Shown: piece after piece, positions 13,932-22,279 of the stretch
How positions within the stretch are numbered: position 1 is the stretch's first letter
Layout: each line of letters opens with the position of its first letter
Virus record (IMG/VR): IMGVR_UViG_3300037225_000328
Coordinates: 1 to 45,792 of that record
From: a virus
Lineage: Duplodnaviria; Heunggongvirae; Uroviricota; Caudoviricetes
Length of the DNA: 45,792 nt
Reading direction: 5' to 3' (one strand)
Translations under genes and position numbers: made by a program
Notes under the pieces: model-generated
Seen by the model: the letters and a program-made list of their open reading frames with translations, nothing else
Told to the model about the DNA's origin: nothing
Database searches by the model: none

Positions 13932-13937
13932 ATTACA

Positions 13938-13965
13938 ATTATACCTTATTTCGAGTAAATGTCAA
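13938..13965 (-). promoter_or_regulatory. sigma70-like promoter
   Basis: TTGACA-16nt-TATAAT-6nt-ATG. Confidence 0.88.
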
Positions 13966-14474
13966 ATTTTATTCAATACGGCAAAGGGACCACGACATTT
14001 TATTGCGGCTTCATTATAGGCTCTTGCGGCATCTTTCTTATTAGTAAAAATCCCCAAAAAACTTTGTTTACCTTTAACTCGAATATTAGCTACCCATTTA
14101 TTTCTTCGTTTATCCTCAGTAACACCCGTGTATCCCGATGTATTATTTTTACGCTTACCTTGATTCGAGTTACTTTGTGAATCTGTTGCAATTCGCAAAT
14201 TACTTCGTTGATTATTTAATCCATTTCGATCTTTATGATCTACTTTTTTATCTTTAATATTAAGATGCATTCTTTCAGCAATAGCTTGATGCATTCGTAA
14301 TGTTACAAATTTTCGACAACCACACAGTCTACAGGGCTTTGTTTTTGAAAGATTTCTTTCGGCATAAAAAGTTATTCTATTTTTATGCGCGAACCACTTC
14401 CATTGCATTAAGTAAGTATAATCTTTATTAGAGACTAATACAAACTTGCCTTGTGTGAGCGGAATTCGTTTCAT
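13962..14474 (-). CDS. HNH-AP2 homing endonuclease
   Basis: IPLTQGKF, VDHKDRNGLNNQRSNLR, NTSGYTGV, AARAYNEAA. Confidence 0.92.
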   Translation of the reverse strand: MKRIPLTQGKFVLVSNKDYTYLMQWKWFAHKNRITFYAERNLSKTKPCRLCGCRKFVTLRMHQAIAERMHLNIKDKKVDHKDRNGLNNQRSNLRIATDSQSNSNQGKRKNNTSGYTGVTEDKRRNKWVANIRVKGKQSFLGIFTNKKDAARAYNEAAIKCRGPFAVLNKI

Positions 14475-14476
14475 AG

Positions 14477-14773
14477 TGGAGATGCCGAGAGTCGCACTCG
14501 GGTCTTAATTGCTTCTAGTGGTATATCTACATACATAGTTATTCGTTATTCAACAGCCCAAATAACTCGGCTGATCTATAAATGTACATCAACTGTCAAT
14601 TACTAACGACTTCTGCTACATTGACACTTACAGTTGTCTTGGCAGCTTTACGCAGCCAGTGCTAATTGCGGTTTGGCAATTAAATAATTTAGTCAGCTTT
14701 TAACGTGGCCAACTGACTAACCACGGTATGCAACACTTCCTGTTCACAATTAATCGAAACCTACTTCATCCCC
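14477..14773 (-). ncRNA. ssrA: tmRNA
   Basis: 5' GGGGATG pairs with 3' CATCTCC-A (G3:U70); T-arm CCGAG-TGCGACT-CTCGG; tag ORF 14648-14677 AKPQLALAA-stop. Confidence 0.92.
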
Positions 14774-14783
14774 ATCGTACCTT

Positions 14784-14951
14784 TTACGGTACAACTCGCC
14801 TCAATTCACGAGCCACATACTCATAAACACGCCGGACTTCTGTACCAAGTAGCGTTACCGCAGGTATCGCTACAATCGTAATTAGTGCCAATAGCACTGC
14901 ATACTCGACGGCTGCCGGCCCATCCTCAGAAACAAGAAACTTACGAATCAT
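14784..14951 (-). CDS. flp: Flp/Tad (type IVb/c) pilin, 55 aa (not in ORF track)
   Basis: MIRKFLVSEDG/PAAVEYAVLLALITIVAIPAVTLLG: G-cleavage, E+5 Y+6, hydrophobic helix; AAAGG SD. Confidence 0.85.
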   Translation of the reverse strand: MIRKFLVSEDGPAAVEYAVLLALITIVAIPAVTLLGTEVRRVYEYVARELRRVVP

Positions 14952-14954
14952 TGA

Positions 14955-15182
14955 CTAACCTTTCAAAAAAGAGGAACAAGAAACAATAAATGATCCATTG
15001 CGCCAATCAGGCGGCGACTGCGGTATACACGGATAAACCGGATACGGAGGCATGGGTGGATCCATTGGAATAACTGGTCCCCACGGACGAGTTGCCTTGG
15101 CATGACAACGCTTACATCGCCCAACACCTTCCATATCTGTTTCAACCGGCCCGCCACAAATTGAACAAGTTCCAATGATCAT
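14955..15182 (-). CDS. small Zn-finger, Pro-rich protein
   Basis: CSIC...CKRC; GGAGG SD supports start MIIGTC. Confidence 0.65.
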   Translation of the reverse strand: MIIGTCSICGGPVETDMEGVGRCKRCHAKATRPWGPVIPMDPPMPPYPVYPCIPQSPPDWRNGSFIVSCSSFLKG

Positions 15183-15197
15183 ATTTAATACCTCCAG

Positions 15198-15264
15198 CGA
15201 TTTTGGTTGGACTCGAACCAACATTCACACTTCGACTTAATGTAAACCCCAACCTGGCAAACTC
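15198..15264 (-). pseudogene. degenerate tRNA-like element (GTC at anticodon position)
   Basis: T-arm GTTGG-TTCGAGT-CCAAC, stem ACATT/AGTGT with 7-nt loop, 6/7 acceptor pairs; poor D-arm. Confidence 0.35.
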
Positions 15265-15335
15265 TGTTGGATCGGACTATGACCCCGATCCAAGGTTGTC
15301 CCGAATTCAACACCCGAATACAACCATGCCGAGCA

Positions 15336-15821
15336 TTAGACCTTATTTAATACTGCAAATTTGCCAAAATATTTTAATGCTGCTTTATTATAGGCTTTAG
15401 CAGCTTCTTTTTTACTGGTAAAATAACCTAAATGAATATCTTTTCCATTTATTTGAATCTTAGCTTGCCATTTATGGCTATCTTTTCGCCAATGTACACC
15501 TTTATAACCAGATGTATTATTCCGTTGTTTAGGTCGATTTATTCCATTCTGAGATACTGTTGCGAGTCTTAAATTTAAGCGTTGATTATTTAATCCATTC
15601 TGATCAATATGATCTAATGTGTCACTCGCTAAAAGACCCATTCTTATAGCAATGATTTGATGCATTTTTATTGCAGTTTGTTTTAACTTGCTCTGAACAC
15701 ATCGAACAGCATAAAACATACCACGATGTTTAGAGGCACACCATTTCCACTGTATTAAGAATTCATAATCTTGATCATCAACCAAAGCAAACTTATCTTG
15801 CGTAAGTTTTATCTTTTTCAT
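15336..15821 (-). CDS. HNH-AP2 homing endonuclease
   Basis: LTQDKFALVDD, DHIDQNGLNNQRLNLR, NTSGYKGV, AAKAYNKAA. Confidence 0.92.
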   Translation of the reverse strand: MKKIKLTQDKFALVDDQDYEFLIQWKWCASKHRGMFYAVRCVQSKLKQTAIKMHQIIAIRMGLLASDTLDHIDQNGLNNQRLNLRLATVSQNGINRPKQRNNTSGYKGVHWRKDSHKWQAKIQINGKDIHLGYFTSKKEAAKAYNKAALKYFGKFAVLNKV

Positions 15822-15834
15822 AAAAGAAGCTCCA

Positions 15835-16023
15835 TTACGATTCGGACGTAATTACAATGCTGGCAACGGGGCGCGGATTGCAGAGCCTTCGCTGGAGAGC
15901 TTGTACCGAGATAGTGTGGATCACAAGAGGCGTTACTAAAAGATAGTCATCAATTGCACCACGGAAGTCTACTTGCCTGTCGTCGTAAATGCCAACTTCA
16001 AACATCCGACCAAGGTATTTCAA
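15835..16023 (-). CDS. hypothetical protein
   Basis: short coupled ORF. Confidence 0.45.
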   Translation of the reverse strand: MKYLGRMFEVGIYDDRQVDFRGAIDDYLLVTPLVIHTISVQALQRRLCNPRPVASIVITSES

Positions 16024-16379
16024 ATCCTATAAACGGGCACTGGGATAGCAGCGATTGTACCAACCGGCTGACCACCCAGCATCACGGTGACATTGTAAGG
16101 AAGAGACTTGGGCTCTTCGAGAGTAGAGAGATTGAAAAAGCTAATCAGTCGTGTCAACTCTTCCACTCGATTCCAAGTTCGACCAATCCGATAATTCGTA
16201 TCCGGATTGCTCTCTTGGTTCATTAGAATATGAGCGTCCTTCTTTAGGCCATCAACTTCATATTCGAGAATATGCTTAATATCAGAAAAGGCCGGTGGAC
16301 ATTCGACTACAGTACAAATATACTCTTCACCATTGCGGCCGTGAATACATACGTTATACGCGACTACTTGGGTCATCAT
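16020..16379 (-). CDS. hypothetical protein
   Basis: start revised to MMTQVV with GAAGGG SD inside tatA. Confidence 0.65.
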   Translation of the reverse strand: MMTQVVAYNVCIHGRNGEEYICTVVECPPAFSDIKHILEYEVDGLKKDAHILMNQESNPDTNYRIGRTWNRVEELTRLISFFNLSTLEEPKSLPYNVTVMLGGQPVGTIAAIPVPVYRI

Positions 16380-16497
16380 CAATTCCCTTCTTGAATTCAC
16401 GGATTCCTTGCCCTAGACTTCGCATCATATTTGGCAGTCTATTACCGAATAGGAGCAAAGCGACGAAGGCCAGGATAAGAATTTCCGCAAGCTTCAT
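16354..16497 (-). CDS. tatA: twin-arginine translocase subunit TatA/E, 47 aa (not in ORF track)
   Basis: MKLAEILILAFVALLLFGNRLPNMMRSLGQGIREFKKGIDD: TM-FG hinge-amphipathic helix-EFK; own leaderless promoter. Confidence 0.88.
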   Translation of the reverse strand: MKLAEILILAFVALLLFGNRLPNMMRSLGQGIREFKKGIDDDPSSRV

Positions 16498-16503
16498 ATT
16501 ATA

Positions 16504-16531
16504 ACTATACCATGAAAAAAGCCTTTGTCAA
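16504..16531 (-). promoter_or_regulatory. sigma70-like promoter for tatA unit
   Basis: TTGACA-16nt-TATAGT-6nt-ATG. Confidence 0.82.
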
Positions 16532-16888
16532 GGCAACAATTAAAACTATTGTCAGACAGGCAGCATTAAACCAAAAATAATTCGGTTCTTCGGGTTGTAC
16601 TATTATCGGTTCCCACGCCACAGGAGGCACTGGCACCGACGAAGCGGGTGGTGGGAGCGCTGGAGGCATCACGACTGGCGCTAAACCCAGTGCCTCCTGC
16701 CATTCTATCGGGACTAGTTCAGGTCTAATCGCGCCCGATAACCGTCTTATTTCAAATAAAGTTTCTCCAATTGAAGCAATATCGCCGGGAATCTTTGGAC
16801 CCCGACCAAAAACGAAACATTTAGTTTGATCTTTTTGAGAAAAATCTACAGCAATATAATCATTGCCAGACTTGTAATAGTTAGCCAT
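16505..16888 (-). CDS. tail-anchored membrane protein with Pro-rich linker
   Basis: PPALPPPASSVPVPP then C-terminal hydrophobic helix. Confidence 0.65.
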   Translation of the reverse strand: MANYYKSGNDYIAVDFSQKDQTKCFVFGRGPKIPGDIASIGETLFEIRRLSGAIRPELVPIEWQEALGLAPVVMPPALPPPASSVPVPPVAWEPIIVQPEEPNYFWFNAACLTIVLIVALTKAFFMV

Positions 16889-17318
16889 TATAATTACCGC
16901 GTTCGTCAACTACTCCCATTTTTAGATGTCGTCCAAATGCGGGAAGTGTCCGAAACTCTTCTTTTGGAATAGTGATAACTGTAGACCCCTCATGATGGCC
17001 CCGTACATAATCGGCGACCCCGTGAGAAGGATATATCGCTACAGTGGGATGTGACAACGACACCCAACCTTCGGATTCCCCGTCATCATAACCAAGATAC
17101 TCAAACTGTCCATCAACCTTCCGACGAACCGCATAGACATTGGGCTCTAAGACGCGAAGTTGTTGTTTACGTAAGATAAGGGCTTGCTGTAAAGCTGTAA
17201 CCTCATCCCAACTCATCTTACCGATTGCTTTTATCCAATTCACGTATTCGCTCCTTGTATTTGGCGTATAGATTATGTAAATCTTGTTTAGCAGTCGAAA
17301 CTTGAAGTTTGGCATCAT
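16881..17318 (-). CDS. hypothetical protein
   Basis: ORF; true start likely downstream. Confidence 0.55.
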   Translation of the reverse strand: MMPNFKFRLLNKIYIIYTPNTRSEYVNWIKAIGKMSWDEVTALQQALILRKQQLRVLEPNVYAVRRKVDGQFEYLGYDDGESEGWVSLSHPTVAIYPSHGVADYVRGHHEGSTVITIPKEEFRTLPAFGRHLKMGVVDERGNYNG

Positions 17319-17523
17319 GAAGTTTTCGTCGAAGATACTTTCTCATCCAGGTATAAGCTTCTTTCAAATCTGTAAAGATATTTTCTTCATAAACCTTAAA
17401 TTCAATTTGAAACTTATCTTTAACCCATAGACTTTGGTTATCAATGCGTTTAATTACTCGAAGTTTTTCAAGCCCATATTTCGTTGCCATGTATACAATT
17501 GGTTCATTCATCTTTAATCTCAT
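17218..17523 (-). CDS. hypothetical protein
   Basis: ORF in run. Confidence 0.6.
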   Translation of the reverse strand: MRLKMNEPIVYMATKYGLEKLRVIKRIDNQSLWVKDKFQIEFKVYEENIFTDLKEAYTWMRKYLRRKLHDAKLQVSTAKQDLHNLYAKYKERIRELDKSNR

Positions 17524-17995
17524 TTAAAGTGGCAAACTCGCCAAAATATTTTAAAGCCGCTTCATTATATGCTTTTGCTGCATCTATTTTAGTATCAAAG
17601 AATCCTAAAGAAATAAATTTATTATCAACTTGAATTTGAGCCCGCCATTTAGATCCATGTTTAAATTGGGAAACACCTTTATAGCCAGATGTATTATTTT
17701 TATATTTTCTTCGATGAGCAGAATTTTGAGAATCTGTTGCTAACCGTAAATTATCTCTTTGATTATTTAGTCCATTTCTATCTATATGATCTACCTCCCC
17801 TAGAATTCCCATTCTTTCAGCAATAGTTTGATGCATACAAATAGTTTTTCGTGGGGGATTTTTTCTGCTTGTTTTTCGTCTTGCGTAGAATGTAAATCCT
17901 ATTTTAGCAGCATACCACTTCCATTTCATCAAGATATCATAATCTTGGTCATCTAATAGAGCAAACTTGTCTTGTGAGAGTAGTATCTGTTTCAT
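17504..17995 (-). CDS. HNH-AP2 homing endonuclease
   Basis: VDHIDRNGLNNQRDNLR, NTSGYKGV, AAKAYNEAA. Confidence 0.92.
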   Translation of the reverse strand: MKQILLSQDKFALLDDQDYDILMKWKWYAAKIGFTFYARRKTSRKNPPRKTICMHQTIAERMGILGEVDHIDRNGLNNQRDNLRLATDSQNSAHRRKYKNNTSGYKGVSQFKHGSKWRAQIQVDNKFISLGFFDTKIDAAKAYNEAALKYFGEFATLNEIKDE

Positions 17996-18429
17996 CCTGC
18001 ATACCTTTCAGCAGCAGCAAGATCGTTCCATTCGTCAGATTTCTCTTCTTCGTAACTTTTATTCTTCCAATCGACAATATCATTTAATTTAGTTTTAACA
18101 AATTTAAGTCCGTGTTTAGAAACTTCTCGGAGTACCCGGTCTACTATAAAAGTTGCTACAGTTCCTTTATATCGCGCAATTTCCGTTGGACCCCCATCAA
18201 AGATTATATTAATTTCAGTCAACGGGCGAAAACAATCTGCGCTCTTCAACATACTACTAACCGAAGTCTGAAAGGCAGTGCCTCTTAATGTAAAAAAATC
18301 CTGCTCGTATCCACCTAGATTTTTAAGGAGAATACACGCCTGAACAGTATCGAATGTATTAACAAGGGCCATAATTGCAGTAATTAGTGATCGTCGCTTA
18401 TTCTCGGTTTCAATCTCTTGGTGCATCAT
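17992..18429 (-). CDS. hypothetical protein
   Basis: coupled ORF. Confidence 0.65.
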   Translation of the reverse strand: MMHQEIETENKRRSLITAIMALVNTFDTVQACILLKNLGGYEQDFFTLRGTAFQTSVSSMLKSADCFRPLTEINIIFDGGPTEIARYKGTVATFIVDRVLREVSKHGLKFVKTKLNDIVDWKNKSYEEEKSDEWNDLAAAERYAG

Positions 18430-18592
18430 TTAACAATACTTTCTGGTCGGGTTTCATCCATCGAAGAAGATTAGTAAATGACTGACCAATGAATACTCGT
18501 ACTATAGGTGCTGCCTCGACTATTAGACCATTTGATACTTTAACTCCGACCGTCATTCGAGGACTTGATAACCACCACTTATCCATTTGCAT
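18410..18592 (-). CDS. hypothetical protein
   Basis: WWLSSPRMTVGV..NG.I..AAPIVR.FIGQ resembles a recurrent small phage family. Confidence 0.6.
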   Translation of the reverse strand: MQMDKWWLSSPRMTVGVKVSNGLIVEAAPIVRVFIGQSFTNLLRWMKPDQKVLLNDAPRD

Positions 18593-18887
18593 TAGCCACT
18601 AAATTATACCATAATTTTGTATCTGGATCAAGATTTTCTAGTTTTTTTAGTAAAATATTTTTCGCAGATTTCATCCAACCATTATCCGCTAACCATTTAG
18701 CTGCAATTACTATGCCAGATTGTGTAATAATTTGATGAATTTTTACATCGTAAACATTTACTTCTGGTGGGGTTGGCGGGCAGCCGCTCCCATCAGGGTA
18801 ATAAGGCACGCCTGGATCTCCGGGTGTAAAGAAATAAAGGATCTCGGCGTCAAAAACATCATCAATTAAATGATAGATACATTTCAT
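18579..18887 (-). CDS. hypothetical protein
   Basis: ATGA-coupled ORF. Confidence 0.65.
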   Translation of the reverse strand: MKCIYHLIDDVFDAEILYFFTPGDPGVPYYPDGSGCPPTPPEVNVYDVKIHQIITQSGIVIAAKWLADNGWMKSAKNILLKKLENLDPDTKLWYNLVANANG

Positions 18888-19174
18888 ACTTGTTGCTCAT
18901 TCCACGCCATAATTTCGCTACAAAGTTCATTAAACTTCTTTATCGCGGATCCACGTCCCTTGAAAACATAGACAATTCTGGTGTTGAATTTATGCAATCT
19001 CTTGTTGCTATAATGCCCCGCTTCTCTAAGAACTATACGGGCATACATTTCCGGGCCGACAACCCACTTATTATTTTTTGCATGAAAAATGGCCGTTCGC
19101 ATCCCTGTGTTATGGCAACCAAAAAACTCCGGGCCTAGAAATCCTTTTCCAAGGTCCAATTTTGGGATCTTCAT
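18884..19174 (-). CDS. hypothetical protein
   Basis: ATGA-coupled ORF. Confidence 0.6.
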   Translation of the reverse strand: MKIPKLDLGKGFLGPEFFGCHNTGMRTAIFHAKNNKWVVGPEMYARIVLREAGHYSNKRLHKFNTRIVYVFKGRGSAIKKFNELCSEIMAWNEQQV

Positions 19175-19470
19175 GGTGTCACCGGATGGATAATCTCAAT
19201 CTCTTCATATTCATAGCCTTGGTCGCTACGTATATTTAGAAGATTAATAATCGCCCTTATGTCTCCACCCTTTGCCTTGTAGTAAAACATTTCTTGGTCG
19301 CTATCAAGATCGTCAGGATTACCATAATAGCCCCACTCATCCATCACACGAAACAAATGAAGATATGCCTTATCTCGCTCAGCTTCATTACGGGCATAAA
19401 CGGGGTAATCCCCATGCTTTGCTTTAAGAATTAGTACCATCGGCACTCCTGTATAATTCGCGTTCGGCAA
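19171..19470 (-). CDS. hypothetical protein
   Basis: ORF in run. Confidence 0.6.
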   Translation of the reverse strand: MPNANYTGVPMVLILKAKHGDYPVYARNEAERDKAYLHLFRVMDEWGYYGNPDDLDSDQEMFYYKAKGGDIRAIINLLNIRSDQGYEYEEIEIIHPVTP

Positions 19471-19723
19471 TTAGTTGCTTTAATTCAGCCAAATTAGTTA
19501 TTGAAGTTTGAATACTCTGCGAGAGAGTAACACAATCTCTACGCAATTTATCCATGCGCTTCTTCCACTGCTCTAATTGAAATTCCCCATGCTCCAAAGC
19601 AGCAGTGGCTTCCAGCCGCATTTGTTTCATTTCAGGAATTCTAGCCTCATAGGCATCCCGAAGAATACAATATCGAGAGTAATCATCAGGAGCCTTATTG
19701 AGTAATTCTTGCCAGTTGTCCAT
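19424..19723 (-). CDS. hypothetical coiled-coil protein (leaderless)
   Basis: ATG 6 nt after TTGACA-16-TAGGAT. Confidence 0.75.
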   Translation of the reverse strand: MDNWQELLNKAPDDYSRYCILRDAYEARIPEMKQMRLEATAALEHGEFQLEQWKKRMDKLRRDCVTLSQSIQTSITNLAELKQLIAERELYRSADGTNS

Positions 19724-19729
19724 ACTATA

Positions 19730-19757
19730 ATCCTACCATCAAGTTTCAAGTTGTCAA
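19730..19757 (-). promoter_or_regulatory. sigma70-like promoter
   Basis: TTGACA-16nt-TAGGAT-6nt-ATG. Confidence 0.8.
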
Positions 19758-20105
19758 GTTAAAAATACCCCATTCCGAGTCGGAAATTGAATAGTAGCAG
19801 CGTTTCACACCCCGGAGCCGCATCGCCCCTTGACACCGCCTGCAAGGCCGGGCGAGGGCCAAGGTGCCATCCGAATGTATTCTGACAACATAGACCGTGC
19901 TTCCCCAATCAAGCTTCTTAGTGACCCGTGCTTCGGCATGGGCGAGAGGATTAGGCGTCCTAGAAACAATGTTGCTTGCGGTAACAACTGCCCCATCGGT
20001 GCGGATACCGACCGCCCCCACACGATAATGACGATTAGCCTCCTTGCAATCACCTTTAAGGGCTACTTGACGTGCTATACGAAAATACTTATCAATTTGA
20101 GCCAT
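19746..20105 (-). CDS. Zn-dependent cytidine/dCMP-deaminase-fold protein
   Basis: VGAV, HAEAR, PCRRC, GVKRCYYS. Confidence 0.85.
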   Translation of the reverse strand: MAQIDKYFRIARQVALKGDCKEANRHYRVGAVGIRTDGAVVTASNIVSRTPNPLAHAEARVTKKLDWGSTVYVVRIHSDGTLALARPCRRCQGAMRLRGVKRCYYSISDSEWGIFNLTT

Positions 20106-20107
20106 AG

Positions 20108-20179
20108 TCGGAATGGGTGGAATCGAACCACCATCTGGGCCTTATAAGAGTCCGGTCCTAACCATTGAACGACATTCCG
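20108..20179 (-). tRNA. tRNA-Ile(UAU)
   Basis: cloverleaf CGGAATG/CATTCCG-A, loop CT-TAT-AA, TTCGATT; no CCA. Confidence 0.88.
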
Positions 20180-20182
20180 CAA

Positions 20183-20256
20183 TAGTGGGCGAAGGACTCG
20201 AACCTTCACTGTTCACGTTCTAAGCGTGATGCCTCCTTCCATTGGGCTAGCCCACC
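20183..20256 (-). tRNA. tRNA-Leu(UAG), short variable loop
   Basis: TCACG-CT-TAG-AA-CGTGA; 5-nt V-loop; G1:U72, A73. Confidence 0.85.
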
Positions 20257-20262
20257 ATTAAG

Positions 20263-20335
20263 TAGCAGGGATCGGACTCGAACCGATACTACCGACATTT
20301 TGAGTGTCGTGACTCTTCCATTGGTCTACCCTGCC
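20263..20335 (-). tRNA. tRNA-Leu(CAA), short variable loop
   Basis: CGACA-CT-CAA-AA-TGTCG; 5-nt V-loop; G1:U72, A73. Confidence 0.87.
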
Positions 20336-20768
20336 AAGTTTTATTTTGTCTAATATTTCTAATTGATTTTCGATCAACATCAAACTGTCGAGCTAAACTT
20401 GAAACACTATTATTTGATAGTCTAATTGCTAATACTTGACTCCAATTTAATTTAGCCCGACCATTGTTAATATCTTTTGCACTTCGTTTTCGTTGAACCC
20501 GATCATAAACATTATCACTATGAGTTCCCGATTTTAAATGATTTGGATTAACACAATTAGGAACATCACAAGTATGACGAATTACTTCTGTTAGTATAAG
20601 TCCCTCCAAAAATGCTGCAATGCGATGGGCTCGATAATGCTTATTATTTATACAAAAATAACCGTAACCTTCGCTGTCTATACCGCCGCCCCACAACCAA
20701 CAAGAATCAGATGAACCTTTCTTGTAGCAACCATAAAAGCGTTTAATTTGTTCTTCAGTCAAATTCAT
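20289..20768 (-). CDS. HNH homing endonuclease inside tRNA array
   Basis: CWLWGG, RAHRIA, RHTCDVPNCVNPNHL; C-terminus overlaps tRNA-Leu(CAA). Confidence 0.9.
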   Translation of the reverse strand: MNLTEEQIKRFYGCYKKGSSDSCWLWGGGIDSEGYGYFCINNKHYRAHRIAAFLEGLILTEVIRHTCDVPNCVNPNHLKSGTHSDNVYDRVQRKRSAKDINNGRAKLNWSQVLAIRLSNNSVSSLARQFDVDRKSIRNIRQNKTWQGRPMEESRHSKCR

Positions 20769-20770
20769 AG

Positions 20771-20843
20771 TGAGCCCGGCAGGGATCGAACCTGCGACCT
20801 AGCGGTTAAAAGCCGCTTGCTCTACCAATTGAGCTACGAGCCC
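20771..20843 (-). tRNA. tRNA-Lys(UUU)
   Basis: canonical cloverleaf, AGCGG-CT-TTT-AA-CCGCT. Confidence 0.95.
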
Positions 20844-20847
20844 CAAG

Positions 20848-20935
20848 TGGGTAATGAAGGAATCGAACCCTTTCGGCAGCCACCTTGCATCTTTTACGCC
20901 AAGCGGTTTACAGCCGCACGCAAGGAACATCACCC
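20848..20935 (-). tRNA. atypical tRNA-Tyr(GUA)-like RNA lacking a normal D-arm
   Basis: GGGTGAT/ATTACCC-A acceptor, GCGG-CTGTAAA-CCGC, TTCGATT loop; about 28-nt extra region. Confidence 0.6.
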
Positions 20936-20946
20936 ATATTTATAAA

Positions 20947-21014
20947 TCGGGCCTGTGGGACTCAAACCCACAACCTCCCGGTTCCTCCCGGTGCTCCTAT
21001 TAAGCTAAGGCCCG
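20947..21014 (-). pseudogene. degenerate tRNA (Pro-like; 6-nt anticodon loop GAGGAA)
   Basis: CGGGCCT/AGGCCCG-A acceptor, GTGGG-TTTGAGT-CCCAC T-arm. Confidence 0.55.
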
Positions 21015-21033
21015 CCAAATTCCTATAGAAACT

Positions 21034-21255
21034 TTAATCATAATCATGGATTGCATAATAATCGCGGGCTTCATCCCAACCAGCCTCATGCGCACGATCC
21101 CACACACCGCTCACAAGAGGCATAGCAGCATTGGCACAAGTCTCATAGCCATTATGCCACGCCAGGCGTGCTAATTCCTTGATTGTATCAAGACGATTAC
21201 TTTCCATGTGAGAAATGTCAAGTGCCCGCCACCACTTGTCAAAGTAAGTTGTCAT
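21034..21255 (-). CDS. hypothetical protein (leaderless; start revised to MTTYF)
   Basis: ATG 6 nt after TTGACA-16-TATGAT. Confidence 0.7.
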   Translation of the reverse strand: MTTYFDKWWRALDISHMESNRLDTIKELARLAWHNGYETCANAAMPLVSGVWDRAHEAGWDEARDYYAIHDYD

Positions 21256-21261
21256 ACTACA

Positions 21262-21289
21262 ATCATAGCACAATTTTTCAGATTGTCAA
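21262..21289 (-). promoter_or_regulatory. sigma70-like promoter, probably driving the tRNA array
   Basis: TTGACA-16nt-TATGAT-6nt-ATG. Confidence 0.8.
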
Positions 21290-21561
21290 GCCGGGGTACT
21301 GATTATTTTCAAGAAGCGCCTACTCAGGCGGCGAAGAGTCTTTACCCGCTTAGTATTCTGTAGAATCTGAAATTCTGTCCGTTCAAAGTCAATATCCGGA
21401 ATACGTGTTACAATCAATTTATCCGTAAATCCCATCCGGCGGGCGGCACGTCGGCATTTTAGAAACGCAGCTTTTACAACACTACGTTTTTCGTGGTAGA
21501 AAAGAAAAAACGGATAAAACTTATCAACCTGTGGTTGTTTCACTAAGATCGCATAGTTCAT
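21286..21561 (-). CDS. hypothetical basic protein
   Basis: start revised to MNYAIL (GGGAG SD). Confidence 0.55.
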   Translation of the reverse strand: MNYAILVKQPQVDKFYPFFLFYHEKRSVVKAAFLKCRRAARRMGFTDKLIVTRIPDIDFERTEFQILQNTKRVKTLRRLSRRFLKIISTPA

Positions 21562-22279
21562 TTGCTGACTCCCATAGTTCCTTGATATCATTGTAATGTG
21601 GCTCAATATTTGATAGCATTCTCCACGGCACATCTGCTATGTGTGATTTAACAATAAACGTGCCATTTTTTTCTTCATATGATAAATCTTTAGTCCAACA
21701 TTGTCCTATTCCAGCAAGCATTTCGTGCATTGCAGTACGATTCTTTCCTTGCAAATCACAATGCGAAAAGAATTGACGTGTATAAAGACTTAAAGAGTTT
21801 CGTTGCCAATCAGTAGCTCGCCAGAGAAAATAGTTTACTACTTCCTGTTCAGGAATATTAAAGGCTCTAGCATCAAATGCAGCGGGGGATCGACTATAAA
21901 AACCAAAGGCATTTAACATCTTGTTAAAGTGGCCACCAAAAACGGACGCTGATACTGATTCCACTTTTGATTGATTATATCCAAACCAAGCATCAGTTGT
22001 CAAAGTATCATAATCTGTTAGCACAAAGCTTGCTTCGTCACTTTGAATATAGGCCAGCTTGCAACCCTGCATATCATCCGCAAGCGCCCTGGCAGCCATC
22101 ACCATAGACCGCATGATACCGTGGTCAAACGGACTATTACATTGACGAGTGAAAGTGGAAAAGGCACGACCATCAACTCTTATAATTACAGGTATCCGGC
22201 GTGTTAAATAATGTCGTGCCGGATTTTCATAGTTTAACTTTATTCTTTTTGCTAGTTCAGAATGGTCAGGCATCAACAT
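21524..22279 (-). CDS. thg1: tRNA(His) guanylyltransferase / Thg1-like 3'-5' polymerase
   Basis: RVDGRAFSTFT, PFD, YIQSDEASF, FDAR, WRATDWQRNS. Confidence 0.92.
   Translation of the reverse strand: MLMPDHSELAKRIKLNYENPARHYLTRRIPVIIRVDGRAFSTFTRQCNSPFDHGIMRSMVMAARALADDMQGCKLAYIQSDEASFVLTDYDTLTTDAWFGYNQSKVESVSASVFGGHFNKMLNAFGFYSRSPAAFDARAFNIPEQEVVNYFLWRATDWQRNSLSLYTRQFFSHCDLQGKNRTAMHEMLAGIGQCWTKDLSYEEKNGTFIVKSHIADVPWRMLSNIEPHYNDIKELWESANELCDLSETTTG

Follow-up and report, generated by a model that had tools for sequence, protein, structure and literature searches.

Animal mitochondrial transcripts are reportedly processed by transfer RNA (tRNA) punctuation, as Ojala, Montoya and Attardi are said to have described in 1981. 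Free-standing homing endonuclease genes are known from phage tRNA regions, T4 segB and the T5 tRNA region being examples, and thrU-tyrU-glyT-thrT-tufB of Escherichia coli is expressed as a tRNA-mRNA co-transcript. Primary leaderless mRNAs have been described for lambda cI and in Actinobacteria, Deinococcus and Caulobacter (PMC4633059, PMC3160421, PMC8459731). Here we analyze a stretch of 45,792 nucleotides (nt), hereafter called the window, which forms the initial 45.8 kb of an uncultured viral record of 109.8 kb (IMG/VR record IMGVR_UViG_3300037225_000328). Three protein genes in it start immediately behind two tRNAs and a transfer-messenger RNA (tmRNA). We lean somewhat towards reading these as tRNA-punctuated genes, in which tRNA 3' processing would release near-leaderless mRNAs.

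Genes that start at position 76 of a tRNA or tmRNA

Almost all genes of the window (G+C 41%) are carried by the minus strand. Infernal places the discriminator bases of a tmRNA, a tRNA-Ile(TAT) and a tRNA-Lys(TTT) on this strand at 14477, 20108 and 20771. All three junctions read A/C-T-A-T-G, the slash following the discriminator, with the ATGs at 14474, 20105 and 20768, and the A of each start codon stands at position 76. The features concerned are as follows; SD denotes Shine-Dalgarno, ORF open reading frame and aa amino acids throughout.

14472..14476, minus strand: junction C74-T75-ATG after the tmRNA discriminator A14477 (sequence)
20103..20107, minus strand: junction C-T-ATG after the tRNA-Ile discriminator A20108 (sequence)
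20766..20770, minus strand: junction C-T-ATG after the tRNA-Lys discriminator A20771 (sequence)
13962..14474, minus strand: HNH_3 and AP2 homing-endonuclease-like gene, 170 aa, after the tmRNA (Pfam; paralog alignment)
19746..20105, minus strand: cytidine/dCMP-deaminase-fold gene, 119 aa, after tRNA-Ile, the last gene before promoter P19723 (Pfam PF00383)
20289..20768, minus strand: HNH endonuclease gene, 159 aa, after tRNA-Lys (Pfam HNH_3; PHROG HNH families; ORF list)
14477..14773, minus strand: tmRNA (Aragorn; Rfam RF00023, 107 bits)
20108..20179, minus strand: tRNA-Ile(TAT), CCA-less (Aragorn; Infernal/Rfam, 54.9 bits)
20771..20843, minus strand: tRNA-Lys(TTT), CCA-less (Aragorn; Infernal/Rfam, 71 bits)

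Judged by alignment, the three ATGs are true start codons, because Pfam, homolog and paralog alignments reach residues 1-3. The deaminase matches PF00383 with residues 3-106 on profile positions 3-101; its 120 listed homologs range from 91 to 140 aa, the bulk of them 111-123, and in most cases 94-100% of the query is covered. The tmRNA-linked HNH protein and two paralogs in the window (15336-15821 and 17504-17995) can be aligned from M1 onwards; at their own loci, the paralogs start by means of an SD site or an overlap. These three HNH-AP2 paralogs lie within 4 kb.

The 25 nt upstream of each ATG consist of T-arm and acceptor sequence, and within these 25 nt neither an SD core nor a TAnnnT -10 box at the right distance was found at any of the three starts. 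Likewise, no promoter-like box lies between the tRNA or tmRNA and the abutted gene at any of the three junctions. Folding gives no appreciable structure for the first 30 nt of each of the three coding regions (0 to -1.2 kcal/mol), and all tRNA-abutted starts are ATG. Since the AUG lies 2 nt from the stacked acceptor/T-arm helix and has no SD site, it would be poorly accessible unless the tRNA is cut away, and excision of the tRNA probably creates a translatable message end.

The initial annotation had described the tmRNA, tRNA-Ile and tRNA-Lys as each followed by the C-T-ATG of a protein gene, on which the Infernal discriminators and the sequence agree, and had seen no convincing SD site there, in keeping with the empty upstream 25 nt. 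Its statement that every such RNA preceding a gene ends in this way stands for recognisable RNAs. The junction is different at an unclassified 150-nt structured element (15186-15335, minus strand) between an HNH-AP2 gene and a zinc-ribbon gene. The 3' end of this element carries a T-arm-like hairpin, GTTGG-TTCGAGT-CCAAC, then G/CT-GGAGG-N8-ATG, so that an SD-led start follows at about 15181. An intron-split tRNA was considered, but both Aragorn with introns allowed and Rfam gave no match. The element may be a tRNA remnant like that of the relative L288 described below.

Spacing, trailers and gene starts in related phages

Genes set directly against tRNA ends recur in relatives of this phage. 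The related records, linked via the deaminase, are G001, G002, G003, G005, G008, G009, G010 and G013, and further loci were read in IMG/VR. The following junctions were found.

G001 (deaminase 68% identical): tRNA-Ile(TAT), A/TT-ATG, deaminase
L290 (junction as in G001): tRNA-Ile(TAT), A/TT-ATG, deaminase
L284 (deaminase 77% identical): tRNA-Leu(CAA), A/CT-ATG, deaminase
L285 (deaminase 74% identical): tRNA-Leu(CAA), A/CT-ATG, deaminase
G001: tRNA-Tyr, A/CT-ATG, 131-aa PDDEXK_5 nuclease
G005: tRNA-Ser, G/CT-ATG, 104-aa ORF
G002: tRNA-Leu (Aragorn only), C/T-ATG, 67-aa ORF

In L284 and L285 the upstream tRNA differs from the tRNA-Ile of the window while the spacing is identical, and the PDDEXK_5 profile aligns to the G001 nuclease from residue 7. 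For each tRNA, the offset was taken to the first start within 100 nt with an open frame of 50 codons or more. Offset 3 was found at 6/32 junctions in the group versus 2/159 for unselected tRNAs of diverse phages (Fisher p = 3e-4); the excess has p = 1.4e-3 with the Ile-deaminase pair counted once and 0.027 for the relatives alone, with the window left out. The group offsets are bimodal, either 3 (six cases) or 14-20 and more, with 4-7 and 9-13 empty. Genes farther from the tRNA own a signal, which is a GGAG-type SD site at offsets 14-20 and 27-28 or, alternatively, a full TTGACA-N17-TATAAT-N5/6-ATG promoter. The ATG is never placed on the discriminator (A/TG) nor at offset 1, despite A73 being common, which argues for a conserved 2-nt element combined with pressure for a minimal leader and not for simple packing.

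A wider survey of IMG/VR with the pattern GGTTCGANTCC-N11-CTATG, which spans from the tRNA T-loop to the ATG, gave more than 116 matches. Of the 80 loci read, 23 have an ATG that begins a frame of 60 codons or more, compared with a baseline of 23/383 in the same frame after unselected tRNAs (p = 5.5e-8); after unselected CTA trailers the fraction is 4/67. Given this excess over baseline, flush-started genes exist in many uncultured phages.

The CT trailer itself is far less specific. Positions 74-75 are CT in 33 of the 43 tRNAs of the related records, whatever comes next, and the four RNAs of the window that precede tRNAs have the trailers CTT, TTG, CTT and TTT, two of which also start with CT. 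Because CT is generic, only the placement of the ATG at position 76 is specific to the junctions; C74-U75 belongs to the tRNA gene and is presumably tied to its 3' processing. The third base of the CT trailers in relatives (T 14, A 11, G 6, C 2) is near base composition, and the idea that A76 is conserved in the group as a pseudo-CCA was rejected. Among 445 tRNAs from 80 diverse IMG/VR loci (L158-L237) the commonest trailers are CTA (124, of which 56 had been selected for CTA), CAA (69), CTT (37) and CCA (36). Position 74 is almost always C across these 445 phage tRNAs, and a C-N-A "pseudo-CCA" seems to be a general trait of phage tRNA genes.

CCA is encoded by none of the tRNAs nor by the tmRNA studied here. 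The tmRNA, whose tag reads AKPQLALAA, ends in CCA-C-U-A instead of CCACCA, and a phage CCA-adding enzyme, looked for as a PF01743 nucleotidyltransferase, was not found in the phage record. An Anaerolinea genome bin with a related 63-kb contig contains 29 tRNA genes, 23 of them CCA-less and 12 with CT trailers, and also a full-length RNase Z match (291 bits). From this one binned contig, Anaerolinea is a tentative host lead.

Start contexts of the deaminase were read in about 35 orthologs. In five loci the gene starts at position 76 of a tRNA. Orthologs without an upstream tRNA mostly start 3-6 nt behind a TGnTAnnnT -10 box (e.g. L014, L016, L018 and L302, the last with a full TTGACA-N17-TATAAT-N6-ATG) or are stop-start coupled (L129, L291 and L306), and the remaining orthologs fall into no clear class. 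Where it lies directly behind a -10 box, the deaminase is expected to be leaderless. L288 (1230-1340) retains only the 3' part of a tRNA-Leu(CAA), namely T arm and acceptor strand, followed by CT-AAAC-ATG of the deaminase. The upstream ORF of L288 reads through this remnant and ends 2 nt before the deaminase ATG, which suggests that the deaminase switched to coupling after tRNA loss. The remnant is a fossil of a tRNA-deaminase junction.

Taken against these data, the initial annotation fares unevenly. Its expectation that distances from tRNA end to ATG in relatives would not be random is borne out by the offset-3 excess. The proposed release of near-leaderless messages by tRNA processing gains from the recurrence, the enrichment and the leaderless deaminase orthologs, and loses C-T as a junction signature; the contrast it drew with trailers between tRNAs is weak for the reasons given above. 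The fit it saw with a leaderless bias agrees with the promoter form TTGACA-N16-TAnnnT-N6-ATG, which is widespread in the phage and was checked before the ATGs at 21255, 19723, 16497 and 13931.

Proposed expression route and alternative explanations

These four promoters frame two predicted transcription units.

21256..21290, minus strand: promoter TTGACA-N16-TATGAT-N6 before ATG 21255, P21255 (sequence, motif pattern)
19724..19757, minus strand: promoter TTGACA-N16-TAGGAT-N6 before ATG 19723, P19723, overlapping the 3' end of the deaminase gene (sequence)
16498..16532, minus strand: promoter TTGACA-N16-TATAGT-N6 before ATG 16497, P16497 (sequence)
13932..13965, minus strand: promoter TTGACA-N16-TATAAT-N6 before ATG 13931, P13931, directly after the tmRNA-linked HNH gene (sequence)

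We infer one unit that runs from P21255 through an ORF, tRNAs, the HNH gene, further tRNAs and the deaminase gene, ending at P19723. A second unit probably runs from P16497 on to an flp-like gene, the tmRNA and its HNH gene, ending at P13931. The flp-like gene is a 55-aa ORF (14784-14951, minus strand) with a match to the Flp/Fap pilin family (E = 2.4e-5) under the Pfam cut-off. Between this ORF and the tmRNA 5' end lie 10 nt, and its stop codon falls within a small hairpin.

The tRNA cluster contains four further RNAs.

20183..20256, minus strand: tRNA-Leu(TAG), trailer TTG, followed by tRNA-Ile (Aragorn; Infernal/Rfam)
20263..20335, minus strand: tRNA-Leu(CAA), trailer CTT, followed by a tRNA (Aragorn; Infernal/Rfam)
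20848..20936, minus strand: long-arm tRNA-like element, trailer CTT, below Rfam thresholds (weak tRNA-Sec match, 23.7 bits; fold)
20947..21014, minus strand: atypical tRNA, trailer TTT, first RNA of the cluster (Rfam, 41.4 bits; fold; Aragorn)

The atypical tRNA has a 6-nt anticodon loop (CCGG-GAGGAA-CCGG) and is called by Aragorn as tRNA-?(Pro/Ser) with a 2-base anticodon. In the long-arm element the acceptor stem and T arm are good, the CUGUAAA loop presents an anticodon like the GUA of Tyr, and the D region is aberrant. In the whole record one tmRNA, five tRNAs above the Rfam threshold and one weaker tRNA-like element were detected, all at 14.4-21.0 kb. The entire 109.8-kb record was scanned and no tRNAs were found beyond this range, so no additional junctions are testable in this genome. 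Just upstream of the tRNA cluster and deaminase lies a Thg1-like gene (21524-22279, minus strand; PF04446, E = 3e-25), and such a gene is also upstream in the relative L285 (L285:2517-3248). Thg1 belongs to a family of tRNA 5'-end 3'-5' polymerases. The Thg1-like gene may belong with the tRNAs and the deaminase gene to a single tRNA-related module, and the substrate of the small deaminase might be tRNA instead of nucleotides. Single-protein IMG/VR searches with the Thg1-like protein, the deaminase and a primase-helicase gave no matches, while an alignment search with the deaminase did give relatives. When positions 14000-21900 were compared by blastn with 50,697 phage records, only generic tRNA/HNH pieces and no close cultured phage were found.

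Under the punctuation reading, the tRNA cluster (from P21255) and the tmRNA (probably from P16497) would be transcribed within polycistronic units from leaderless-type promoters. The host RNase P and a 3' endonuclease, likely RNase Z, would then excise the CCA-less tRNAs and the tmRNA. A 3' cut after N73 or C74 would place the new 5' end of the downstream RNA 1-2 nt ahead of the AUG, which would be used by SD-independent, 5'-end-dependent (leaderless-type) initiation, a route that many other genes of the phage appear to share. C74-U75 would be kept as a tRNA processing signal and the AUG placed as near to it as possible. We infer co-transcription, the enzyme and its cut site, and translation from the processed end from sequence features of this kind.

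The exact cut would matter for expression. RNase Z usually cuts after N73. A cut between C74 and C75, as Streptomyces coelicolor makes in CCA-encoding precursors (PMC4681348), would agree with the near-universal C74, and only one U would then precede the AUG. Each extra 5' nucleotide approximately halves leaderless translation in Caulobacter crescentus (PMC8459731), so expression is expected to be modest, which suits homing nucleases.

Several observations weigh against this reading. A 2-nt leader, as left by a cut after N73, corresponds to about a quarter of full leaderless activity in C. crescentus, and a single additional nucleotide is reportedly already inhibitory in E. coli (PMC8459731). 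Many genes of this genome lack a strict SD core according to our SD/-10 classifier, which is crude and leaves 43 non-overlapping genes unclassified. Since SD-less genes are common in the genome, the lack of an SD site is by itself weak evidence and not distinctive. The CT dinucleotide, as a generic tRNA trailer, says nothing about downstream genes. In L292 a tRNA-Ile with A/CT is followed by TGGTAATAACT (11 nt) and then by the deaminase ATG with no clear SD site, and this longer spacer indicates that exact abutment is dispensable. Among the five independent junction genes, three resemble homing endonuclease genes, and for these a position next to a tRNA has an explanation of its own. Finally, the number of junctions is small.

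The main alternative to punctuation is packing combined with mobile-element history. We regard it as possible although rather unlikely. Here homing endonuclease genes and small accessory genes would be wedged into the minimal spacers of a tRNA cluster, with CT as the mere tRNA trailer and the ATG behind it for want of room; tRNA processing would be unproductive or may even destroy the message, and translation would follow a weak ordinary SD-independent route or hardly occur. Two of the three window genes and one gene in relatives are HNH or PD-(D/E)XK nucleases; the two HNH genes carry homing-family nuclease domains (HNH_3 with AP2, and HNH_3) and their sites are occupied or empty depending on the relative. 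The HNH ORFs leave no base of their gaps unused, one having its stop in the next -35 box and the other in the next tRNA. In the former case the stop TGA (13964-13962) lies inside the TTGACA box (13960-13965) of the following promoter, while in G002 the tmRNA is directly followed by a promoter-like box and an SD-led gene without an HNH gene. By these two findings the tmRNA-linked HNH gene resembles an insertion fitted precisely between tmRNA and promoter. G013 reads Lys-CTAT-Ile, without a gene between the tRNAs. The generic CT trailers and the abutting or overlapping genes throughout the genome also speak for packing. What packing leaves unexplained is the fixed 2-nt spacer, never 0 or 1, the empty offsets 4-7 and 9-13 together with the SD sites or promoters at longer ones, and the non-mobile deaminase, which in four lineages keeps this junction after one or the other of two tRNAs. 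Moreover, a start 2 nt from the acceptor stem would be poorly accessible on an uncut precursor.

A more far-reaching version of punctuation would act at both gene ends, and we consider it doubtful. In this version excision of the tRNA or tmRNA would be obligatory on the 5' side, and on the 3' side RNase P would remove the stop codon of the upstream gene, leaving a non-stop message to be A-tailed or cleared by tmRNA. It would tie the output of these genes to tRNA maturation and give the phage tmRNA a purpose. The case behind it is the Lys-linked HNH ORF, which reaches tRNA-Leu(CAA) without a stop and has its final 15 codons and its stop within the tRNA (20289-20335); the conserved HNH part ends at about residues 143-147 (PHROG HNH families). 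An RNase P cut between 20336 and 20335 would leave ...ACU-U without a stop. The cut message could possibly be a non-stop mRNA, and a client of the phage tmRNA, or its final U could become UAA by A-tailing.

Stops of ORFs that run into tRNAs were also read in G002, G003, G009, G010, G013 and L158-L237. Upstream ORFs often terminate at the conserved U8-A9-G10 of the tRNA, which reads TAG, or with a TAG whose G is also tRNA G1; the stops peak at tRNA position 8, where 15 were counted. The deaminase gene of L286 ends in such a TAG, its G being G1 of a tRNA-Glu. The suggestion that such ORFs are special to this group was rejected, with 10/49 here versus 63/428 in diverse phages.

Primary leaderless transcripts from a promoter hidden in the 3' half of the tRNA or tmRNA would need no processing at all, and many genes of this phage have a -10 box 6 nt before the ATG; deaminase orthologs in relatives carry such boxes too. 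This explanation is nevertheless very improbable for the three junctions, since the 12 nt before the ATGs (CATCTCCACT, CATTCCGACT, GGGCTCACT) contain no TAnnnT at -12 to -7 and no TTGACA lies about 16 nt further upstream; L006, L284 and L285 likewise lack both the -10 hexamer and TTGACA. That the position-76 ATGs are not real starts and the pattern an annotation illusion, with a downstream start or decaying pseudogenes behind it, is hardly credible: short ORFs of uncultured phages are often mis-started, and the Joint Genome Institute gene call for the L284 deaminase begins at a TTG within the tRNA, but the Pfam and homolog alignments from residues 1-3, the HNH-AP2 paralogs from M1 and PDDEXK_5 from residue 7 all fit the ATGs, and the HNH gene has no further in-frame ATG until codon 23, which lacks an SD site.

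Meaning and relation to known systems

The arrangement would thus be a phage variant of tRNA punctuation that feeds leaderless-type translation, a view well supported by comparative geometry. If it is true, tRNA genes act as expression signals besides being adaptors and provide, beside promoters and SD sites, a third way to start a gene in leaderless-capable hosts. Phage annotation would change, as gene callers misplace such starts (L284 is an example), and small genes and homing nucleases inside tRNA clusters would find a new account. The supply of tRNA would also be linked to the output of accessory genes during infection. In the full-text literature within reach, which leaves out most subscription journals, we found neither tRNA-abutted starts nor processing-made leaderless mRNAs in phages or bacteria.

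Among the known systems, thrU-tyrU-glyT-thrT-tufB likewise has a protein gene downstream of tRNAs on one transcript, separated from them by tRNA processing. However, tufB has a normal leader with an SD site and its start codon is not abutted by a tRNA. The homing genes of T4 (segB) and T5 share with our locus HNH-type nucleases between or beside tRNA genes that are absent at the site in relatives. To our knowledge, a start at position 76 of the preceding tRNA has not been reported for genes of this type, and here a non-mobile deaminase shows the same junction.

Primary leaderless mRNAs resemble the predicted messages in having the AUG at or near the 5' end, no SD site, an unstructured start and a strong preference for AUG, and the phage itself has many promoter-N6-ATG genes. 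In contrast to these, the 5' end at the three junctions would come from processing and carry a monophosphate, probably with 1-2 extra nucleotides.

Mitochondrial punctuation is alike in that tRNA genes abut coding sequence (by 2 nt here) in predicted polycistronic units, and in that excision by RNase P and RNase Z would give leaderless or almost leaderless, SD-free mRNAs. The likeness may extend to the 3' side, where the Lys-linked HNH ORF runs into the following tRNA without a stop. Unlike in mitochondria, the setting is a bacteriophage in the bacterial cytoplasm. Only some genes of the phage would be punctuated, most having their own promoter or SD site, and the tRNAs are mostly clustered instead of one per gene. 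The phage also keeps a conserved 2-nt C-U between the tRNA and the AUG.

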